From Escherichia phage DK-13, in the sequence record MT611523.1: a stretch of DNA of 64,000 nucleotides. One strand, written 5' to 3'. How positions within the stretch are numbered: the first letter of the stretch is position 1; each line of letters starts with the position of its first letter. Made by a program: the position numbers and the translations under genes. This document shows positions 7,333 to 37,274 of the stretch, one piece after another. Below the pieces are notes generated by a model, which ran no database searches, was not told where the DNA came from, and saw only the letters and a program-made list of their open reading frames with translations.

Positions 7333-7566
7333 TTATTTTATCATAACCTTTTTAGTTAAAAGCTCGTCGGGATGCCTTCTGGCGTATGAAGGGCTTTCTT
7401 TTACTGGGGTATTTGAAATAACATCACTTAATTTATCAGCTCTAGCTTTTAATTCTACGTGTTCTTTTGAATCTTTAAAAGGATGACTAATTATTTGCAA
7501 ATTAAGACCATGTAATTCATATTTAAGCCCTTCCATAAATCTTGCTGGGCACCCGTAATTATTCAT
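7333..7566 (-). CDS. hypothetical protein (77 aa)
   Basis: co-oriented ORF between HNH gene and soc. Confidence 0.3.
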   Translation of the reverse strand: MNNYGCPARFMEGLKYELHGLNLQIISHPFKDSKEHVELKARADKLSDVISNTPVKESPSYARRHPDELLTKKVMIK

Positions 7567-8407
7567 TTTCGAACCTCTTTACCATGTTTATATAATTTTC
7601 GTCTGGATAACCTAAACTAACTGCTAACTTTCTAAAATTCACATATTTAGGTTTGTTATTACTAAGCCATAAATCTCTAAGCTCAATTTCATAATTCCAT
7701 TTAAGCTGGTTTCCTCTAGCAGTTTTGCTCAAAGTTTTTCCTTTATCTTTTAGAGCTTTTTCCGAAGACTGTTTTAATTTTTGGAGATTTAAAACTTCCT
7801 CAACAGATAAATTATTTTCTTCTGCATAGCGCGCACAAAAATCTTTTACTGTAGCTATTAGACAGTTTTTGTGGGTACCTAAAACTTCCGGATTATTTTC
7901 TTCAACCAAAACTCCCCAGTATCTTCGATAGCGAGGCATATCCCGCGAAATCCAGTCATTATACCAGAAATCAAAATTAGAATACATAAAGGATTTTCTT
8001 TTACGGAGAATGTCTTGCTCTATCCACTCCCCGCGTTTATCGGCCCATAACTTAATAGTAAGGTCTTTCTCTAAATCAGAAAGCTTCTTAAACTGGGCAC
8101 TATTTGTTAGTGTCATTCTCTGGAATGCATTAAGCAAACCCAACACCCGAGTTGAGCACAAAAGATAATGAACATATATGTGTTGGTATATAGGAAGATA
8201 CACCCTATTCCAAGGAGAGATTTTAAAATCGCTGTATTCTGGAAATGCACACTTCGGAAGTATATGATGAGCTTCCGTTTTAGATTTGGTATGGACGTTT
8301 AGTTTATACTTATCTATAATTTTTAAGTAATCATCTAAAAGTTCCCATTGCGGGAACTTTTCTTTAAGAACGGATTTGAAATTAATATCCATTGTCCTGA
8401 CGTTCAA
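7559..8407 (-). CDS. HNH homing endonuclease (Mob-like), freestanding
   Basis: TEAHHILPK HNH core motif; sits at the gene 56/soc junction where T4 carries segF; 5' end overlaps gene 56 so exact start is uncertain. Confidence 0.75.
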   Translation of the reverse strand: MNVRTMDINFKSVLKEKFPQWELLDDYLKIIDKYKLNVHTKSKTEAHHILPKCAFPEYSDFKISPWNRVYLPIYQHIYVHYLLCSTRVLGLLNAFQRMTLTNSAQFKKLSDLEKDLTIKLWADKRGEWIEQDILRKRKSFMYSNFDFWYNDWISRDMPRYRRYWGVLVEENNPEVLGTHKNCLIATVKDFCARYAEENNLSVEEVLNLQKLKQSSEKALKDKGKTLSKTARGNQLKWNYEIELRDLWLSNNKPKYVNFRKLAVSLGYPDENYINMVKRFENE

Positions 8408-9221: not shown

Positions 9222-9362
9222 CCAGTAAGAAAAGCCCATGATGTTTCTCTGTGGAACTTACTGGTTGTGCCTATCGCTGCAACACAAGGGGTGCACTTAC
9301 CTCAGGTCACAACGGAACATATCCATTCCATCATCGGTTACTTTACCGGAATCCCTTCCTAA
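9222..9362 (+). pseudogene. start-less, rearranged partial copy of the 8982-9179 gene
   Basis: translation ...LWNLLVVPIAATQGVHLPQV aligns with ...LWNFVVAPIALAHGVILPVV of the upstream gene; no start codon; preceded by a copy of that gene's 3' end. Confidence 0.35.
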
Positions 9363-10108
9363 ACTTTTGCGTACTTCCAAAAATGGCCGTTTGACCTATA
9401 CATTCGGCCTGTCTTTTTATTTCTTTTACAAGCTGTGTATATATTTTGAGTATTGCCCGCCAATTGTAATAATTCCTTTGCCTCAGCTCCCGAATTATAC
9501 TTTTCAAGTATATTACCAAATTCATCGCATCTACAAACCGGTGTTCCAGTTGCCTTTCGGCATGCTTCTCGGCGCAACTTTTTCGTTTCTTCGGTTTGCG
9601 GATTTTCTTTAAATCGTCTCATTTGTGCATCGCGATTCTTTTGCCGTTGTTCATCAGTAATTGGATTATTTTGATAATACAATTTTAATGAGTTGGCTAT
9701 TTTGCTTTTGGTTTTATCAGACGCAGGGTGGTCGTTATGTCGCTTGTGTAAAGCAATTAACATTTTGTCTTTAAACTCGGATTGACTCCATAAGTTTGAC
9801 ATATGTTCACTAACGGCTTTACTATGTTCTTTTCGCATCCATTCATATTTTGCGCTATCAAATTTGTCACCACACATCCGGTGTATAGCAAACATTAATT
9901 TAGAAAGTCGATAAATTTTAAAAAGTAACAAATGCGCAATAAAATGTTCTCTTGCTGATAACAATACCAAATTATCTTCGGTGTCAGGCCCACCCAAACA
10001 CCTTGGTAGTATATGATGGGACTCCGTATAAAATGGGATATTCTTTTTGTTTAGGCCCCTTGCGAGGCCTTTGTCTATTAATTTATTATATAATTTTAGA
10101 TAATTCAT
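9359..10108 (-). CDS. HNH homing endonuclease (Mob-like), freestanding
   Basis: ESHHILPRCLGG ... N ... H HNH motif; ATG overlaps gene 61 stop (ATGA). Confidence 0.8.
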   Translation of the reverse strand: MNYLKLYNKLIDKGLARGLNKKNIPFYTESHHILPRCLGGPDTEDNLVLLSAREHFIAHLLLFKIYRLSKLMFAIHRMCGDKFDSAKYEWMRKEHSKAVSEHMSNLWSQSEFKDKMLIALHKRHNDHPASDKTKSKIANSLKLYYQNNPITDEQRQKNRDAQMRRFKENPQTEETKKLRREACRKATGTPVCRCDEFGNILEKYNSGAEAKELLQLAGNTQNIYTACKRNKKTGRMYRSNGHFWKYAKV

Positions 10109-23547: not shown

Positions 23548-23979
23548 TTAAGCAACAACTGCCATTTGTTTGCGGATAGCTTCCGGAAGAGATTCAATAT
23601 ACTCTGGAAGTTGCGCAGCAATAATAGAACCAGCTTGGACCAGGTGGTCGTCGAAGTCAACACAGTAATCATCTTCGAGACGTTCGGAACCGTCACGGTC
23701 GATAACCAGTTTAGCACCAGCAGCCAGTGAATCGTTGTAGTGATTACGCATCAGTTCAATCCACTTATCAGATACATCAGTATCAATCACACCGTACAGC
23801 ATGAATTTAATTTCTTGCGGCAGAGACTGCAGACGGGCAGCAGATGCTTCATCACATGCCAGGACCCAGGATTTGCGGATGCGGTTTTGGTTGTGTGGGT
23901 TGGCGTCGGTGCGGATGGTTTTAACTTGGATATCTTTAGCAGTTACGTTGTTCATAATATTCTCTCTATTCATTATCAA
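23548..23979 (-). CDS. hypothetical protein (143 aa), in the T4 rpbA position
   Basis: co-oriented ORF between 46 and 45; assignment by position only. Confidence 0.4.
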   Translation of the reverse strand: MIMNRENIMNNVTAKDIQVKTIRTDANPHNQNRIRKSWVLACDEASAARLQSLPQEIKFMLYGVIDTDVSDKWIELMRNHYNDSLAAGAKLVIDRDGSERLEDDYCVDFDDHLVQAGSIIAAQLPEYIESLPEAIRKQMAVVA

Positions 23980-24198
23980 TTAATCAAAGTATTCATATGC
24001 AAACCAGGCATTGTGTCTGTTCGCGATTATTTTAACATATTCTTCACCGAAAGCGTTTTGTAAGTCACGTTCAGTAACAAGGTGTTCATCTTTCGAAAAG
24101 GTATTAACTAACACATATCGTTTAATTTCAGGGACAGCCAGTAAATGCTGCCCGGTTAAAAAATTGCTCATAAATAATATTATCCGTTGCAGTATCAA
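23980..24198 (-). CDS. hypothetical protein (72 aa)
   Basis: co-oriented ORF. Confidence 0.35.
   Translation of the reverse strand: MILQRIILFMSNFLTGQHLLAVPEIKRYVLVNTFSKDEHLVTERDLQNAFGEEYVKIIANRHNAWFAYEYFD
24169..24176 (+). promoter_or_regulatory. late-promoter-like CATAAATA
   Basis: CATAAATA 35 nt upstream of plus-strand HNH ATG. Confidence 0.3.
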
Positions 24199-24211
24199 AC
24201 AAGGGTCTGAT

Positions 24212-24928
24212 ATGAATTATAACATCATTTACCAAAAGCTTATTAGCAGAGCATTGAATCGCAAATTAACCACATACTCTGAAAGTCATCACATTATACC
24301 CCGTTGCATGGGTGGGGCAGACGACGCTTCAAATCTTGTTGATTTAACTCCCGAGGAACATTTCGTTTGTCATCAACTGTTGGTCAAAATGCATCCAAAT
24401 AATGCTTCTTTGGTCTATGCCGCGCGCATGATGACAGTTTCCTCACCAAACGCCGACAGAAGCAAAAACAAATTATTTGGATGGCTTCGTCGTAAAAACT
24501 TGGAAGCTCAACAAAATAAAATTTTCTCCGATGAAACCAGAAAGAAAATGTCAGAATCCGCCAAATTAAAACCGAGAGTTGAATGTCCACACTGTGGAAA
24601 AACCGGTCTCGTTGGCAATATGAATCGTTGGCATTTTGATAACTGTTCCAAAGGTCCAAACAAGGTTGTTCATACTATTCCAGAAAAACAAAAGCAAAAA
24701 ATTTCAGTAGGATTAAAACAAGCTAAACATGAAATTTTAACTTGTGAATTTTGTGGTCTTGAAGGTAAAAAGTGTGTTATATCCACTCACCAACAATTCT
24801 GCAAATCCAATCCAAACCGGAAGAAAAAGGTGGACCCCAAAATTCAGTGTCCACATTGTAATGTAGTCGGTACGCCAGCCAATATGAAACGTTGGCATTT
24901 TGATAACTGCAAAATGAAGCCTCAATAA
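24212..24928 (+). CDS. HNH homing endonuclease with C-terminal zinc-finger repeats, plus strand
   Basis: SESHHIIPRCMGG...N...H HNH core; three CxxC-x(n)-W/HxFDNC repeats; ATG 24212 chosen (ORF track starts at 24011). Confidence 0.75.
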   Translation: MNYNIIYQKLISRALNRKLTTYSESHHIIPRCMGGADDASNLVDLTPEEHFVCHQLLVKMHPNNASLVYAARMMTVSSPNADRSKNKLFGWLRRKNLEAQQNKIFSDETRKKMSESAKLKPRVECPHCGKTGLVGNMNRWHFDNCSKGPNKVVHTIPEKQKQKISVGLKQAKHEILTCEFCGLEGKKCVISTHQQFCKSNPNRKKKVDPKIQCPHCNVVGTPANMKRWHFDNCKMKPQ

Positions 24929-24933
24929 GAGGC

Positions 24934-26616
24934 TCATTCCAGAACAGTAAATCGACCGACTTTTTTCATTTGAAGATGCTGTCCATATGCTTCTGGGTCG
25001 TGTTCACGATGGCTAATGATAAACACGTTTTGACCTTCCAATTTATTAATAATTGCCTGGATAGCTTTGATGCCTTCGGCGTCAGTGGCTGAATCCATGA
25101 CCTCATCCAGAATCAACGTACTAATTTGCACACCAGATACTTTCGCAGCAATATCACGCCATGTAAACAGCAATGCGATATCGATACGAGCTTTTTCACC
25201 CTGGCTAAATGATGCATAGCTGAAGTCTTCACGTCCACGAGATTTAATCGTTTCGTTGAACTCTTCATCTAACGTAAAACTATAATCAGCTTCCATAACT
25301 TTAAGATAAGCGTTTATCTGCTTATTAAAGATAGGAATATATTTCTTAATAATCGCGCCCTTAATACCAGAATCTTTCAACATATCCGTTAAGATACCAC
25401 GTTGATATTTTTCCATCACAAGGTCGGATTTTTGTTTGACTATTTTATCAAGCTGGTCTTGAAGCATTTTAATGTCTGCTGCATGGTCAATAAATTCCGA
25501 CTTAGCTTGCTCGATTAATGCTTTAACCTTTTTAGCTTTTTCGACAGTCTGGACTAAGGTTTGTTTCTTAGTTTGAATGTCTTGAGCTATTGTACGCTGG
25601 TTTTGTCTTGCCTTGGTATACGCATCAAATTGCTCTTGAACAGCATTCTGGCGAGCTTTATGCTTATCAGCTGATGCATTACATTCTTCAATCTTTGACT
25701 CAATCCTGGCGACAATGGGGTCTCCTGGATGCAACTGACTGGCACAAGTCTGACAACAACCACCTTTCTCGTACAGACCAACAACCTTTCGGTAATCGTC
25801 TATCTTCGACTTAATCAGGAATGATTCCTGCTTTAACTTCGTGAGTTCATGCTCAGGGTCTTCTCCCAAGATTATCTCGGTCAGTCTTGTTGTTGCTTCT
25901 TCGATAGTCGTCTTGATTCCACGTGCTTCTGTGGCAAGTTCATCATACATCGTTTGCAGCCGCAACAGATTATCACCTGATAATTTTCTTTGACGGTCTT
26001 CGTTGTCCTGATAGATTTTAATCTGTTGAACAATACCATCATGCTGCACATCCATCACCTGGATTTGACTATTGACTTCACGGATAAGAGATTTGTTCAG
26101 CTTATCCATATCGGCCAGTACAGAAACCTCTAAAAGGTCTTCGACGAGTTTTCTTCTTGCAGGAGTGGATAGGCCCATAAAAGGGGTATATCCAGCTGTG
26201 CCGAGTACGACAATCTGTTTGAAGCTTGCGTAGGACATTCCAATGAGCTGTTCAAATTCCGCTTGGAAGTCTTTACTGCTGGCAGATTCATCAAGACGTT
26301 TACCGCCACAAGAGATTTCAAAAACATTGGGTTTTTGCCCGCGTTTGATATAGTATTCTTTTCCATCATATTCCATCCACAATTCAACGAGCATATCTTT
26401 TTTGTTGCTCGAGTTAATCAACTGGCCTTTCTTTACATCACGGAAAGGCTTACCGAACATAGCAAAGGTAACCGCTTCAAGGAACGTAGATTTACCCGCA
26501 CCATTCTTGCCGGTGACCAGAGTTTTTTGGACTTTATCCAGTTCAACAGTAATCGGTTGAGCACCAACCGACATAATATTTTTATAGATAACTTTCTTAA
26601 GCTTAAAAGTCTTCAC
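24934..26616 (-). CDS. 46: recombination nuclease subunit gp46 (Rad50/SbcC-like)
   Basis: 560 aa; Walker A GKNGAGKST, zinc hook GGCCQTC, Walker B LILDEVMD. Confidence 0.92.
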   Translation of the reverse strand: MKTFKLKKVIYKNIMSVGAQPITVELDKVQKTLVTGKNGAGKSTFLEAVTFAMFGKPFRDVKKGQLINSSNKKDMLVELWMEYDGKEYYIKRGQKPNVFEISCGGKRLDESASSKDFQAEFEQLIGMSYASFKQIVVLGTAGYTPFMGLSTPARRKLVEDLLEVSVLADMDKLNKSLIREVNSQIQVMDVQHDGIVQQIKIYQDNEDRQRKLSGDNLLRLQTMYDELATEARGIKTTIEEATTRLTEIILGEDPEHELTKLKQESFLIKSKIDDYRKVVGLYEKGGCCQTCASQLHPGDPIVARIESKIEECNASADKHKARQNAVQEQFDAYTKARQNQRTIAQDIQTKKQTLVQTVEKAKKVKALIEQAKSEFIDHAADIKMLQDQLDKIVKQKSDLVMEKYQRGILTDMLKDSGIKGAIIKKYIPIFNKQINAYLKVMEADYSFTLDEEFNETIKSRGREDFSYASFSQGEKARIDIALLFTWRDIAAKVSGVQISTLILDEVMDSATDAEGIKAIQAIINKLEGQNVFIISHREHDPEAYGQHLQMKKVGRFTVLE

Positions 26617-32939: not shown

Positions 32940-33410
32940 TTAATCATGTTTCCACACCCCATTGGTATTTGACCAAAGTCGCTGATTATCTGACCCTCGC
33001 CACAGTTTTTTGGTCGGAAGATTTTTCTCATACTTCCCATCAATAATAACATCAACATATTTAAGCATTTCTAGTTGTTTAATATCTTCAAACTTATATC
33101 CTGTCCACAGCCAAATGTTTTTATTGGGATAAAGATTTTTAATAGTTTGAACCACAGAGTGAATAACATCTCGGTTATCAGGATAGAGAGGGTCTCCTCC
33201 AGTTATAGTTAATCCTTCTATATAATCATTATTCAAACATTCAATTAATTGTTCTAGTGTTTCACCAGTGAATGGAACACCATTTCTAGCATTCCATGTT
33301 GATTTATTATAACACCCTTCGCATTTATGCAAACAACCTGTAACGAAAAGAACGACCCTACATCCAGGGCCATTCACAAAATCGCAAGGATAAAATCTAT
33401 CATAATTCAT
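32940..33410 (-). CDS. nrdG: anaerobic ribonucleotide reductase activase NrdG (radical SAM)
   Basis: 156 aa; CxxxCxxC cluster (GCLHKCEGC). Confidence 0.88.
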   Translation of the reverse strand: MNYDRFYPCDFVNGPGCRVVLFVTGCLHKCEGCYNKSTWNARNGVPFTGETLEQLIECLNNDYIEGLTITGGDPLYPDNRDVIHSVVQTIKNLYPNKNIWLWTGYKFEDIKQLEMLKYVDVIIDGKYEKNLPTKKLWRGSDNQRLWSNTNGVWKHD

Positions 33411-35224
33411 TGGTGTTTAACCCTATGCATGATTTCTTTATTTTTGCCGAGATTAAATCCGCGTTCGTTCGGATTTCCCAAATAGCCGCATGTTCTTCTT
33501 ATTGTGTTCATCTTTTTAGGGTCAGTTTCTCCACAAATAGAACAAACAAATCCGTTTTCAGTAGGAGTCATTTCATGGGTACTTCCACATGTAAAACATT
33601 TATCCACTGGCATATTAACACCAAAATAATCTAAATGCTGTGCAGCATAATCCCATACAGCCTCAAGACCTTTTAGGTTATTTTTCATATCAGGAAGTTC
33701 AACATAAGAAATGTGACCGCCTGTCGCAATGAAATGATATGGGGCTTCACGAGAAATCTTTTCAAACGGGGTAATATTTTTTTCTACTGAAACATGGAAA
33801 CTGTTAGTGTACCAGCCTTTATCGGTAACATCTTTTACACTTCCATATTTTTCGGTATCAAGTTTACAGAAGCGATAGCACAGGTTTTCAGCAGGAGTAG
33901 AATACAAACTAAAAGCAAATCCGGTTCTTTCAGTCCACTGCTTAAGACGAGCATTCATTTTAGTCAAAATTTCTTGCCCAATATCACGACCGGCAAGAAT
34001 ATTCAATTCGTGAATACCGATGTATCCTAGGGACACTGAACTTCTACCGTTTTTAAATAACTCAATTATATCATCATCAGGTTTAAGACGAACCCCGAAT
34101 GCACCTTCTTGGTAAAGAATAGGAGCAACAGTCGCTTTAACTCCTTTTAAGGAACTAATTCTACACATCAAAGCTTCAAAACATAAATCCATTCGCTCAT
34201 TGAACAATTCAGTAAATTTCTGTTCATTGAACTGTGTTCCAATATAAGAATCTAACGCAATACGAGGAAGATTCAGTGTTACAACACCAAGATTATTACG
34301 TCCATCAAGAATTTCATTACCAGTCGAATCTTTCCATACGCCCAAGAAACTACGGCAACCCATTGGAGAAACAGGAATAGATGAACCGGTGATAGCTTTA
34401 TTGTTCTTAGCCGAAATGATGTCAGGATACATTCTTTTGCTTGCACACTCTAGAGCAAGCTGCTTAATATCATAGTTCGGGTCGTCTTTATAAAGATTAA
34501 CACCTTCTTCAACAAACATAACAAGCTTAGGGAAAATAGGAGTTATCCCATCGCGACCGAGACCTTTAATACGATTTTTCAGAATTGCTTTCTGAATCAT
34601 TCGTTCGGTCCAGTCAGTTCCGGTACCAAATGTAATTGTTACAAAAGGCGTTTGTCCGTTTGAACTAAAGAGAGTATTTACTTCATATTCATAAGCTTGG
34701 AATGCATCATATACGTCTTTTTCTGTTTTAGATTGAGCATAATTCAACGCATCAGTGATTTGCCATTTTTCCGCGTCCTCAATATGTTTCGCATAGGTAC
34801 GTTTAACATAAGGAGAAAGTACTTTATCTACATTCGCAAAAGTCGTTCCGCCATATTGATGGGAAGCAACCTGCGCAGTAATTTGTGCCATAATTGCAGT
34901 AGCAACACTGATTGATTTAGGAGTTTCAATCTGTGCATTACCGAGCTTAAACCCGTTCTCAAGCATTCCTTTTAAATCTACTAAACAGCAATTAGTAAAT
35001 GGAAGAGCAGGGGAATAATCAATATCATGGAAATGAATAATTCCGCTTTCATGTGCTTTCATAATAAAAGACGCGACCATATTTTTGGCAATGTGTTTAG
35101 ATACAATACCAGCCATAAGGTCACGTTGAGTTGGAAAAACACGAGAATCTTTATTAGCATTCTCGTTTAAAAGGTCTTTATTAGTTTTATGAATCAATCC
35201 TTCAATTTCGTTTTCAATTGTCAT
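33407..35224 (-). CDS. nrdD: anaerobic ribonucleoside-triphosphate reductase NrdD
   Basis: 605 aa, same length as T4 NrdD; C-terminal glycyl-radical motif RTCGYLG and Cys cluster; uninterrupted (no intron). Confidence 0.93.
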   Translation of the reverse strand: MTIENEIEGLIHKTNKDLLNENANKDSRVFPTQRDLMAGIVSKHIAKNMVASFIMKAHESGIIHFHDIDYSPALPFTNCCLVDLKGMLENGFKLGNAQIETPKSISVATAIMAQITAQVASHQYGGTTFANVDKVLSPYVKRTYAKHIEDAEKWQITDALNYAQSKTEKDVYDAFQAYEYEVNTLFSSNGQTPFVTITFGTGTDWTERMIQKAILKNRIKGLGRDGITPIFPKLVMFVEEGVNLYKDDPNYDIKQLALECASKRMYPDIISAKNNKAITGSSIPVSPMGCRSFLGVWKDSTGNEILDGRNNLGVVTLNLPRIALDSYIGTQFNEQKFTELFNERMDLCFEALMCRISSLKGVKATVAPILYQEGAFGVRLKPDDDIIELFKNGRSSVSLGYIGIHELNILAGRDIGQEILTKMNARLKQWTERTGFAFSLYSTPAENLCYRFCKLDTEKYGSVKDVTDKGWYTNSFHVSVEKNITPFEKISREAPYHFIATGGHISYVELPDMKNNLKGLEAVWDYAAQHLDYFGVNMPVDKCFTCGSTHEMTPTENGFVCSICGETDPKKMNTIRRTCGYLGNPNERGFNLGKNKEIMHRVKHQ

Positions 35225-36503: not shown

Positions 36504-37274
36504 TTATTCATTATTCTTTTTCCTAGCATCAGAAGCAGCTTTTCTTCTAGTTCTAGTCCTTTCTAAATCAGCAGCAATCAAATTAGCTATATTAGTAACC
36601 GGATTACCAAATTCATCATAAGTAATATATTTCCAAGCATATCCAAATGTATGATTTCTCTCATTAAGCAGGCACCTTTTAATAGCGCTGCCTGCTTTAT
36701 AAATTGAAAGAAATTTAGCTGCATCTGGTAAATAATCAAAAGTTTCTACCAATTCACCTGAACTTAAATCAAATGCACCAAAAAGCTCAATAGTGTATTT
36801 ACTCCTATCAAGACTGGCTTTAGCTTCATGCTTTAAGTGGTTTATTTCTTTTAGAATTTTAAGGTCTAATTGTCCTGGTATTTTATCTATCTGTACACCC
36901 ATTCTAGATAAAGCATACCCCATTTTATAGTTTCCTGATTTGGCCAACCAATAGTGAGCCATAATATGGCTTTCTATACTTAGATTTACAAGATTCCATT
37001 TAGACGTTTTAAATTCAGGAAATAAGGATTTAGGTAATATATGGTGAGACTCGGTTTTACCTTTTATTAAAGGCCCGGAAGACTCTATTAAAGAGAAATA
37101 GTTTTCAGCAAATTGCCAATAAGGCAATTTGCTTTTAAGAAGTTCTTTAATTTCGTCTAAGGTTTTAGTAGGCTTAACGGTCACTCCAATAGCTTGATAC
37201 TTCAAAATCAGGCTCGCCGTCGTCCCAGTACCAGGGACCCACCGGATGCCAATCGCCATGCTTATCTTCTTCAT
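36504..37274 (-). CDS. HNH homing endonuclease (Mob-like), freestanding
   Basis: TESHHILPK...N...H HNH core; 5' 100 nt overlap the upstream ORF, so the true start (possibly GTG near 37184) is uncertain. Confidence 0.7.
   Translation of the reverse strand: MKKISMAIGIRWVPGTGTTASLILKYQAIGVTVKPTKTLDEIKELLKSKLPYWQFAENYFSLIESSGPLIKGKTESHHILPKSLFPEFKTSKWNLVNLSIESHIMAHYWLAKSGNYKMGYALSRMGVQIDKIPGQLDLKILKEINHLKHEAKASLDRSKYTIELFGAFDLSSGELVETFDYLPDAAKFLSIYKAGSAIKRCLLNERNHTFGYAWKYITYDEFGNPVTNIANLIAADLERTRTRRKAASDARKKNNE

Follow-up and report, generated by a model that had tools for sequence, protein, structure and literature searches.

A freestanding HNH homing endonuclease gene with three I-TevIII-type finger motifs, inserted antisense between genes 45.2 and 46 of Escherichia phage DK-13

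We report that an open reading frame (ORF) of Escherichia phage DK-13, located at 24212-24928 on the plus strand of the 64,000-nucleotide stretch of sequence record MT611523.1 analyzed here (hereinafter the window), is a freestanding homing endonuclease gene (HEG) of the HNH type. This identification is well supported by the homology of its product, by intact catalytic residues, by presence or absence of the gene at one junction among genomes that are more than 90% identical, and by a sharply bounded mosaic tract beside it; such genes are of a sort already known and the finding is in itself unsurprising. The endonuclease activity and mobility of the protein are predictions from sequence. We hold it probable that the gene is the core of a self-contained mobile cassette, inserted antisense at the stop of gene 46 and the start of gene 45.2, whose enzyme targets the 3' end of gene 46.

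The ORF runs from an ATG to a TAA and codes for 238 residues. It diverges from gene 45.2 (23980-24171, minus strand; named after the annotation of phages P479 and SP18) and converges with gene 46 (24934-26616, minus strand), which relatives annotate as an SbcC/Rad50-like recombination endonuclease subunit; both neighbors are thus on the opposite strand, and each is uninterrupted. A preliminary description of this DNA had placed a plus-strand HNH ORF between the 45 region and gene 46, and the ORF is indeed real, occupying the gap between 45.2 and gene 46 in antisense orientation. Its product is 100% identical to a protein of the Escherichia phage P479, a Gaprivervirus, that is annotated as "homing endonuclease", matches the phrog_655 family of the same name with an E-value of 8e-67, and has 3683 homologs at E<=1e-5. 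An extension to 305 residues, started by a TTG at 24011, was ruled out because every homolog starts with the MNY found at 24212. Both halves of the protein are under purifying selection (dN/dS 0.05-0.2), and its AlphaFold2 model has a mean pLDDT of 92.3.

The first 100 residues (24212-24511) correspond to a MobE-type HNH nuclease domain of the beta-beta-alpha-Me class, as indicated by identity to MobE, residue conservation and the structural model. Over residues 1-105 the protein is 46% identical to MobE of phage RB3 (E 2e-25), and its HNH motif reads ESHHIIPRC...NLVDLTPEEHFVCH. Six residues, E24, H26, H27, N41, H50 and H54, do not vary among 56 homologs, nor do they vary among the four HNH paralogs of the window, MobE and I-TevIII. 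The predicted catalytic core of this N-terminal domain comprises H26/H27, N41, H50 and H54, which preserve the superfamily order H...N...H (general-base histidine, asparagine and metal-binding histidine) and align with the HNH of McrA and Cas8-HNH. The motif is intact, with none of the inactivating substitutions that the preliminary description had named as a refutation. The model of this region shows strands 24-27 and 42-45 followed by helix 47-60, i.e. two beta-strands and then an alpha-helix. Mob-type HNH domains constitute a divergent subfamily, and the protein scores 16.8 bits against the Pfam HNH profile (PF01844), under its cut-off of 21.4.

The remainder of the protein is a predicted DNA-binding tail. 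It begins with a NUMOD3-like helix at residues 102-119 (24515-24568), for which a weak Pfam NUMOD3 match at residues 102-117, the presence of PF07460 at this position in many homologs, and a helix at 107-119 in the model are mutually consistent. This is followed by three candidate zinc fingers: C125-x2-C128-x12-H141-x3-C145, ending in NMNRWHFDNC (24584-24646); C178-x2-C181-x11-H193-x3-C197, ending in STHQQFC (24743-24802); and C213-x2-C216-x12-H229-x3-C233, ending in NMKRWHFDNC (24848-24910). Hence, the three C-terminal CxxC...HFDNC repeats of the preliminary description stand as three Cys2-His-Cys units, but just the first and third end in WHFDNC, the second having HQQFC instead. The AlphaFold2 model folds every finger into a hairpin and a helix (a beta-hairpin at 122-133 and helix 134-141 in the first; strands 175-177 and 184-186 and helix 187-199 in the second). 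The first and third fingers have in common a 30-nt direct repeat, identical at 29 of 30 positions and 264 nt apart. The second aligns with finger 1 of I-TevIII (C211/C214) and the third with its finger 2 (C242/C245), and the two together are 37% identical to the I-TevIII pair (E 9e-12). The ligands C213, C216, H229 and C233 of the third finger are invariant in 56 homologs and the module is invariant family-wide; it also occurs on GIY-YIG endonucleases and on one serine recombinase. A search of PDB sequences with the finger region returned nothing meaningful, and the copies of Pfam and NCBIfam searched have no above-threshold family for the fingers. We interpret these units as tandem I-TevIII-type fingers (x12, x11 and x12 spacing) that putatively bind zinc, and the protein as a composite, on the predicted domain boundaries, of a MobE-like head, a NUMOD3-like helix and three beta-beta-alpha Cys2-His-Cys fingers of I-TevIII type.

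The gene is accompanied by elements that are consistent with its being an autonomous unit. The sequence that the preliminary description had reported upstream of the ORF is present as the late-promoter-like octamer CATAAATA (24169-24176, plus strand), 35 nt before the ATG, and the CAT within it is the antisense start codon of 45.2. It has one mismatch to the T4 late promoter TATAAATA, an element placed about 6-8 nt upstream of the transcript start; the mismatch is a C at position -13, which is the most variable position in T4 late promoters (PMC2988020). By our estimate a one-mismatch match within 60 nt would arise by chance in roughly 5% of cases; the perfect TATAAATA is present at an equal offset in the homologous cassettes of Dhakavirus (L006, L007) and of RB51 (L003). 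In T4, early and middle transcripts have a single polarity and late transcripts come from either strand (PMC2988020). As only late transcription uses the strand of the HEG in T4-type phages, we infer that it is expressed late, from its own late-type promoter. The 5' leader (24177-24211), with a Shine-Dalgarno-like AAGGG at 24201-24205, 6 nt before the ATG, retains the pattern tatc..g..gc.gtatcaaa.aagg in the Gaprivervirus, Dhakavirus and Tequatrovirus cassettes. At the other end, the convergent stops of the HEG and gene 46 lie at a hairpin (24913-24938) with the TAA of the HEG in its loop; its folding energy is -14.1 kcal/mol on the plus strand (z -4.0) and -18.9 on the minus strand (z -4.6), none of 200 shuffles folds as well, and its core GCCTCAATAAGAGGC is conserved in Dhakavirus cassettes. 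It may be a two-way transcript end or stabilizer. Sigma-70-type promoters and intrinsic terminators in 23900-25300 are not above shuffled expectation, and the minus strand of the cassette has no MotA-type middle promoter.

The distribution of the gene is sporadic. It is present in 5 Gapriverviruses in the database and absent from about 35 records, so that the insertion is not a feature of all relatives (carriers include P479, PSD2001 and MN01, and RZ is among the phages that lack it); in the non-carriers (SP18, VR7, VR20 and others) 45.2 and 46 are separated by just a 34-bp spacer. The comparison of insertion sites with related genomes that the preliminary description had proposed therefore shows presence or absence at one precise junction among genomes that are more than 90% identical. 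The 45.2/46 junction also harbors homologs, oriented as here, in Dhakavirus, Tequatrovirus and Klebsiella/Cronobacter phages, so that at least four phage lineages have such a gene at this site. These, namely RB32ORF054w, RB51ORF057 and their equivalents, have the inverted orientation, three-finger architecture and leader of the DK-13 gene, and carry TATAAATA, but are just 45-77% identical to it at the amino-acid level and are annotated by similarity only. The 45.2/46 "homing endonuclease" genes of these phages are true orthologs of the gene described here. Without the HEG, genes 46 and 45.2 are 0-3 bp apart in L089-type Dhakaviruses; the spacer is 34 bp long in Gapriverviruses and widens to about 68 bp in T4-like phages. 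The 34-bp spacer has an 11-nt ATTATAACATC in common with codons 2-5 of the HEG; its reading as a deletion scar, left over from the HEG 5' end, is not supported, given that of 2000 shuffles 94-204 gave a local alignment to the entire cassette at least as good as that of the spacer (p about 0.05-0.10).

The window has three further HNH ORFs, all on the minus strand and all with intact HNH residues and matches to phrog_655, which the preliminary description had recognized and which are likewise real and sporadic. One (9359-10108; E 7e-45) overlaps the stop of gene 61 (primase) with its start by 4 nt, and it is present in RZ and YenM_P8 but not in P479, SP18 or VR7 (53-57% query cover). Another (7559-8407; E 2e-30) lies downstream of gene 56 (dCTPase), with the ATG at 8392 as its probable true start; no database genome covers at least 80% of this region, its best matches being vB_EcoM_005 at 89% and Tequatroviruses at about 81%. 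The last (36504-37274; E 1e-28), in the 49/nrdC region, is present in VR7 (VR7ORF086c, "putative homing endonuclease") but not in most relatives. All three have the MobE-like C-terminal W.Y region, unlike the 24212-24928 protein. The preliminary description had suggested that such genes probably explain local differences in gene order from T4; relative to T4 they are insertions and not changes of order. The statement that nrdD is uninterrupted is consistent with its candidate, an unbroken ORF of 605 residues (33407-35224, minus strand).

The sequence flanking the cassette also differs between carriers and non-carriers. The last ~65 codons of gene 46 (24934-25130, minus strand), which encode the Walker B (LILDE), D-loop and H-loop (ISH) regions, are 60-84% identical to those of HEG-minus Gapriverviruses, as against 95-100% from 25140 on, with dense synonymous and non-synonymous changes. 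This tract is matched at 95% or more in all five carriers and in no non-carrier, and its next-best match is 75.6% identical over 212 bp. On the other side, the imported segment ends within the first four codons of 45.2 (24160-24171, minus strand), which read MSNF as against MADF in HEG-minus relatives; left of these codons 45.2 is 97-99% identical to relatives. The replacement is strongly asymmetric, reaching 12 bp into 45.2 but about 195 bp into gene 46. An HEG-linked divergent gene 46 tract of ~200-280 bp is found in three genera, Gaprivervirus, Tequatrovirus and Dhakavirus, the pattern being repeated in RB51 versus T4-like phages and in FB versus a Dhakavirus. Some 900 phage genomes match the gene 46 tail, but a "distant" blastn search with 24929-25140 found no donor for it, with nothing above 76% outside the five carriers. 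We regard the tract as a probable co-conversion tract, on evidence that is a comparative footprint and not an observed cross, and the linkage of HEG presence to it suggests that the cut site of the enzyme is in gene 46. A base-level search for the target, comparing carriers with non-carriers across genera, yielded no single site, the tract being too substituted and too mosaic. The phage MN01 carries the HEG yet has HEG-minus-type bases at 25000-25015, and therefore at least this segment is not what confers immunity.

Two characterized enzymes provide the closest parallels. MobE of T4 and RB3, situated between nrdA and nrdB, is, like the DK-13 gene at 46/45.2, freestanding and placed between conserved genes, and the two proteins share the MNY..IY start and the motif SHHI(I/V)P...NLV.LT..EH..AH. 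MobE nicks a conserved gene beside its own insertion site, about 120 nt inside nrdB, and polymorphisms of the carrier are thought to protect against it (PMC2790892). However, MobE lacks zinc fingers and is unrelated over its C-terminal half, with no alignment past residue 105, and its gene is promoterless and co-oriented with its neighbors (PMC2790892), whereas the DK-13 gene is inverted and has a putative late-type promoter of its own. Mob genes often resist cloning. In I-TevIII of the RB3 nrdB gene, the CX2CX12-13HX3C fingers bind one zinc each and are required for DNA binding, and the dimerization interface has been mapped to the C-terminal ~75 residues containing them (PMC1865063). The HNH numbering of the two proteins is near-identical (H26, H27, N39 and H48 in I-TevIII; H26, H27, N41 and H50 here), but their HNH domains give no significant BLASTP alignment. 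I-TevIII is also encoded inside a group I intron and not in an intergenic, freestanding position, is longer (269 versus 238 residues), and has two fingers, the DK-13 protein having a third that is a near-duplicate of its last. The segD gene is the exception among the seven T4 freestanding endonuclease genes in a discussion of their transcription (PMC2988022), but codes for a GIY-YIG enzyme, unlike the HNH type seen here. Finally, the T5orf172 HEGs of the ICP1 type carry "beads on a string" zinc-finger arrays and undergo inter-HEG domain shuffling (Barth et al. 2023; PMC10448857), but those fingers are of the CapR/DUF723 type (CxxC...CxC) as opposed to Cys2-His-Cys. In the literature searched we found neither biochemical nor genetic assays of cleavage, or of preferential inheritance, on this HEG or its 45.2/46 homologs.

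Taking these observations together, the mechanism we favor is modeled on MobE in its targeting of the neighboring gene; where the target lies, how the DNA is cleaved, the late expression and the current mobility of the element are all predicted parts of it. The cassette would comprise the late-type promoter, the leader, the 238-residue ORF and the terminal hairpin, and would have brought with it ~200 bp of foreign neighboring DNA. The gene would be transcribed late, and in a mixed infection the enzyme would bind a long site in the HEG-minus allele. The most probable place for that site is the conserved coding sequence from Walker B to the H-loop, at the 3' end of gene 46 and within ~200 bp of the insertion. 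There it would either nick or cut the HEG-minus gene 46, as a nickase in the manner of MobE or through a dimeric double-strand break in the manner of I-TevIII. Recombinational repair from the HEG-carrying genome would then copy the cassette along with the stretch of gene 46 between it and the cut. The carrier itself is presumed immune, because many positions of its gene 46 tail are different. Against this mechanism stand the mismatch in the promoter octamer, the HEG-minus-type bases in the tail of MN01, the variation of gp46 tails among HEG-minus Tequatroviruses and the negative search for a donor of the tail.

An unlikely alternative retains the mobile enzyme but places its cut in the 46-45.2 spacer of non-carriers or in the first codons of 45.2, i.e. 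at the insertion point itself as with intron-encoded enzymes, the gene 46 tract being ordinary co-conversion of variable length. Such a cut would find a candidate site in the well-conserved element AATGCTTTA-N11/12-TATAAT in the spacer of non-carrier Gapriverviruses and two T4-like phages, would agree with the replacement of the first four 45.2 codons in carriers, and has a precedent in I-TevIII, which cleaves near its own insertion site (PMC1865063). Nevertheless, the replacement is strongly asymmetric toward gene 46 in three genera, and the spacer is not conserved between these genera, although each of them has the cassette. We consider it distinctly improbable that the divergence of the gene 46 tail has nothing to do with the HEG, with the C-terminus of gp46 being a hot spot and the linkage a coincidence of lineage. 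Part of the divergence could indeed reflect a general hot spot, given that gp46 tails differ among HEG-minus Tequatroviruses (identity to RB51 is 55-85% for L088 and L091, in differing blocks), and the tail of HEG-minus L091 resembles that of the HEG-plus Dhakavirus FB; however, earlier gains and losses of the HEG account for these non-carrier tails as well. Moreover, all ten HEG-minus Gapriverviruses examined have one common gp46 tail protein sequence and the HEG-plus ones another (MN01 differing by a single E-to-D), and in three independent genera the divergent block abuts the cassette exactly and extends no further than 200-280 bp.

The purifying selection on the protein shows that it has a function but not which one, and it might no longer be homing, having been retained, and possibly domesticated, as an HNH/zinc-finger protein that excludes competing phages without propagating itself, regulates through DNA binding, or supplies a hairpin or transcript end between the convergent genes. 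The imperfect late promoter of the Gaprivervirus copy would fit such a role, as would the precedent of I-TevI-type enzymes that double as repressors (PMC2988022). Further, the insertion removed a MotA-type promoter, AATGCTTTA-N11-TATAAT, upstream of 45.2, and the cassette is therefore entangled with host gene expression. We nonetheless give this proposal little credence: the gene is sporadic in each genus with sharply bounded linked flanks, which points to recent horizontal movement rather than stable vertical inheritance of a useful gene, and all its catalytic residues are invariant. Hence, a mobile cassette that targets the 3' end of gene 46 remains the explanation we prefer.

The finding leaves the general understanding of homing endonucleases unchanged. 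It does furnish a clean and well-bounded natural case, in which one HEG cassette occupies the same junction in at least four T4-like lineages, and the linkage of the HEG to a short stretch of imported DNA in an essential gene for recombination affords a concrete prediction of its target site. The I-TevIII-type Cys2-His-Cys finger emerges as a shuffled module that is carried by HNH and GIY-YIG enzymes and by one serine recombinase. A further notion, which we regard as less likely, is that the three classically spaced fingers read DNA in a modular fashion, which would make the protein a naturally re-targetable nuclease scaffold. The HEG would also explain local mosaicism in gene 46, a feature that could otherwise mislead phylogenetic and recombination analyses of phages that are therapeutic candidates. 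We tentatively propose, at somewhat less than even confidence, that the enzyme targets the region of gene 46 from Walker B to the H-loop, and that repeated rounds of attack, co-conversion and HEG loss drive the patchwork of gp46 C-termini in several T4-like genera. If true, the target would be the gene for the Rad50-like subunit of the gp46/47 nuclease, the processor of the very breaks on which homing depends.

Around the homing endonuclease gene (HEG), the sequence matches Escherichia phage P479 at 98.8% identity over 2.2 kb, and PSD2001, MN01 and Yersinia phage vB_YenM_P8 at 97-98%; all four belong to Gaprivervirus, a genus of T4-like phages (Straboviridae, Tevenvirinae). The window keeps the T4 gene order (43, regA, 62, 44, 45, rpbA, 45.2, 46, 46.1/46.2, 47), with genes 43 through 47 all on the minus strand. 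The HEG itself lies on the plus strand, in agreement with the preliminary description, and runs from an ATG at 24212 to a TAA at 24926-24928 (238 aa), divergent from 45.2 (start codon at 24171, minus strand) and convergent with gene 46 (stop codon at 24934, minus strand). A longer ORF from a TTG at 24011, offered by a mechanical listing, was rejected because MNY at 24212 opens every homologue. We observed the gene in five database Gapriverviruses (P479, PSD2001, MN01, YenM_P8 and TH15); about 35 records of 90-95% identity match the window in two pieces that skip it, and the 45.2-46 gap is about 34 bp in ten non-carriers inspected (SP18, VR7, VR20, VR25, VR26, UPEC07, RZ, P896, CJ20 and EAWsc9). 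This exact junction is also used, with the gene inverted in the same way, by orthologues of 45-77% identity in other genera, namely Dhakavirus (vB_EcoM_FB, hereafter FB, and an IMG/VR genome), Tequatrovirus (RB32/RB51 'RB32ORF054w', F2, Aplg8 and others), and Klebsiella and Cronobacter phages of 176-179 kb.

The protein is 100% identical to QWQ55795.1 of P479, annotated as 'homing endonuclease', and matches phrog_655 (E 8e-67). Since the generic Pfam HNH model reaches 16.8 bits, below its cut-off of 21.4, the case for placing the protein in the HNH superfamily is made by the motif residues and the predicted fold. The HNH signature noted earlier is present (…ESHHIIPRCMGG…NLVDLTPEEHFVCH…), its residues E24, H26, H27, N41, H50 and H54 are invariant across 56 homologues and in an alignment with MobE and I-TevIII, and the model (mean pLDDT 92.3) predicts an HNH fold of strands 24-27 and 42-45 followed by a helix at 47-60. 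By pairwise comparison the protein is a composite, with residues 1-105 being 46% identical to MobE of RB3/T4 (E 2e-25) and residues 154-236 matching the C-terminal finger pair of I-TevIII at 37% identity (E 9e-12). Robbins et al. defined the I-TevIII finger motif as CX2CX12-13HX3C, with one zinc per finger and with reduced DNA binding and cleavage on disruption of either finger; that enzyme acts as a dimer to make a double-strand break, its dimerisation interface lying within the C-terminal ~75 residues (PMC1865063).

The three CxxC…HFDNC repeats of the preliminary description are indeed three Cys2-His-Cys units, but only the first (C125/C128/H141/C145) and third (C213/C216/H229/C233) end in WHFDNC; the middle one (C178/C181/H193/C197) ends in HQQFC, and its long spacer has 11 residues, not 12. 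Each is modelled as a beta-hairpin and helix with a preceding helix, and the one ahead of finger 1 is a weak match to NUMOD3, which is common among the homologues. The last finger is invariant throughout the aligned family, and the middle of the protein varies, being made up of NUMOD3 repeats or extra fingers. Fingers 1 and 3 also carry a 30-nt direct repeat (24616-24645 and 24880-24909; 29/30 identical, 264 nt or 88 codons apart), which encodes their NM(N/K)RWHFDNC cores; recombination between the copies would remove fingers 1-2 in frame and yield a one-finger enzyme, like many family members. The last finger is a shuffled module; it scored above threshold with none of the Pfam and NCBIfam models and matched no solved structure in a sequence search. 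Repetitive finger arrays and domain shuffling are known in phage HEGs for other finger types (PMC10448857). Among viral metagenome (IMG/VR) contigs (L027-L086, for example L037:1804-2682, L032:2476-3345 and L076:106-1782), the C-terminal CPHCxKxGxxxNMKRWHFDNC finger occurs on endonucleases that combine GIY-YIG with NUMOD3, and once downstream of a large serine recombinase (Resolvase, Recombinase and Zn_ribbon_recom).

The HNH motif is intact and the insertion is missing from some relatives, and the initial interpretation as a homing endonuclease is supported. From these comparisons we identify the HEG as a T4 Mob-type, freestanding HNH homing endonuclease gene whose product has a zinc-finger DNA-binding tail like that of I-TevIII. 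An identical protein already bears the annotation of homing endonuclease, and a literature search found no paper on the family at 45.2/46; its cleavage activity and target site, its late transcription and its mobility today are inferred. The dN/dS values of the Gaprivervirus copies, compared with one another and with the Dhakavirus orthologues, are 0.05-0.21, and synonymous changes far exceed non-synonymous ones in the nuclease and finger halves alike; the gene is therefore under purifying selection, and no decaying remnant. Between the two Dhakavirus orthologues (FB, L006:2239-2955; a second Dhakavirus, L007:3001-3717), dS is 0.12 in the HNH half and 1.43 in the finger half; they are mosaic within the gene, which suggests that HEG alleles have exchanged the domain forming the DNA-binding tail.

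The most informative evidence lies in the flanks. Carrier and non-carrier sequences agree at 97-99% on the left as far as the first four codons of 45.2; on the right they share only 60-84% identity across the final ~195 bp of gene 46 (24934 to about 25130), beyond which identity jumps back to 95-100%. Synonymous and non-synonymous changes are densely mixed in the last ~65 codons of gp46, a Rad50/SbcC-like ATPase whose Walker B (LILDE), D-loop and H-loop (ISH) lie there; elsewhere the gene has only scattered synonymous ones. Against the non-carrier Gapriverviruses the tract shows 75.6% identity across 212 bp, no closer than to other genera, and a match of 95% or more is limited to the five carriers. 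Two further genera show such a tract independently: RB51 against three T4-like non-carriers (55-85% for ~200-240 bp, then ~100%) and FB against one non-carrier Dhakavirus (47-80% for ~280 bp, rising to 87-100% in the following 120 bp and to mostly 97-100% after that). Such a tract is the footprint expected if the cassette entered by recombinational repair and dragged donor sequence along, and the asymmetry of the replaced flanks (12 bp versus ~200 bp) suggests that the break fell towards gene 46. MobE offers a direct precedent, as it nicks ~120 nt inside its conserved neighbour nrdB and its carriers have polymorphisms at the site. No single site stood out when carriers and non-carriers were compared to narrow the predicted target, as the tract is too densely substituted and mosaic between genera. 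MN01 has the HEG and yet shows non-carrier bases at 25000-25015, making these positions unlikely to determine immunity. Two T4-like phages without the HEG (L091 and L092) have a gp46 tail (…DGSFDAEGIKGVANIINS…ISHKDHDPQEYG…) closely like that of FB over the last ~200 nt of gene 46, a likeness that would fit movement of the tail between genera, perhaps together with an HEG that has since been lost.

In T4, early and middle transcripts have one polarity and only late ones use either strand (PMC2988020); hence, an HEG on the plus strand should be late. The CATAAATA reported ahead of the gene is located at 24169-24176, the CAT within it being the antisense start codon of 45.2, and the Dhakavirus and RB51 cassettes have a perfect TATAAATA in its place. 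The leader is conserved in all cassettes compared, with an AAGG(A/G) ribosome-binding site at its end. Among listed T4 late sites 32 of 50 are perfect, and changes most often hit the first position, -13 (PMC2988020). In our view CATAAATA is probably a genuine late promoter, if a somewhat weakened one; by itself it is only marginally unlikely, with a chance expectation of about 5% as estimated from the background rate. At the other end, a stable hairpin at 24913-24938 (-14.1 kcal/mol, z -4.0, on the plus strand; -18.9 kcal/mol, z -4.6, on the minus strand) covers both convergent stop codons, of the HEG and gene 46, and its core is kept in the Dhakavirus cassettes; it might serve as a two-way transcript end.

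The three further HNH ORFs of the preliminary description exist, belong to the same phrog_655 'homing endonuclease' family (E 1e-28 to 7e-45) and have intact HNH residues. An unbroken 605-aa ORF at 33407-35224, putatively nrdD, agrees with the preliminary statement that this gene is uninterrupted. The gene-61-coupled HEG (9359-10108) is found in RZ and YenM_P8 and absent from P479, SP18 and VR7, and that near 49/nrdC (36504-37274) occurs in VR7 but in few other relatives. The one downstream of gene 56 (7559-8407) is closest to vB_EcoM_005 (89%) and Tequatroviruses (~81%), its region having no Gaprivervirus match at 80% coverage or more. The four HEGs thus have four different sporadic distributions. 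P479 is the nearest genome at 45.2/46, no database genome combines all four, and by these comparisons the phage is a mosaic matched by no single database genome. Other Gapriverviruses have additional ORFs at different points of this replication cluster: a 591-bp hypothetical gene separates 44 from 45 in VR20 (L174:313-903), and in VR26 a 'putative DNA endonuclease' (L175:620-1252) separates 45 from rpbA. Mobile nuclease genes thus seem to use the 43-47 cluster as a whole as a landing zone. RB51 has ~860 bp between 46 and 46.1 (L003:5390-6252), absent from three other T4-likes and showing no feature in the annotation table, which may be another inserted element.

In non-carriers, the 45.2-46 spacer contains a textbook MotA-type middle promoter directly upstream of 45.2 (AATGCTTTA, 11-12 nt, TATAAT). 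This element is present in six of the eight Gapriverviruses examined and in two T4-likes (SP18, L002:3773-3806, with equivalents in L004, L005, L173-L175, L088 and L091; compare window 24172-24933). In the Gaprivervirus and Dhakavirus carriers, where the cassette has replaced it, no MotA-type element was found from the gene 46 end up to 45.2; RB51 has one antisense within its own HEG. The candidate middle promoter lying closest upstream of 45.2 in carriers is a MotA-box/-10 pattern (TGCTTCAAGACCAGCTTGATAAAAT) inside gene 46 (25442-25466, minus strand); it would read antisense through the HEG, though such patterns are not clearly above chance in the window (9 found against 5.4 expected). Middle-mode expression of 45.2, rpbA and 45 may differ between carriers and non-carriers.
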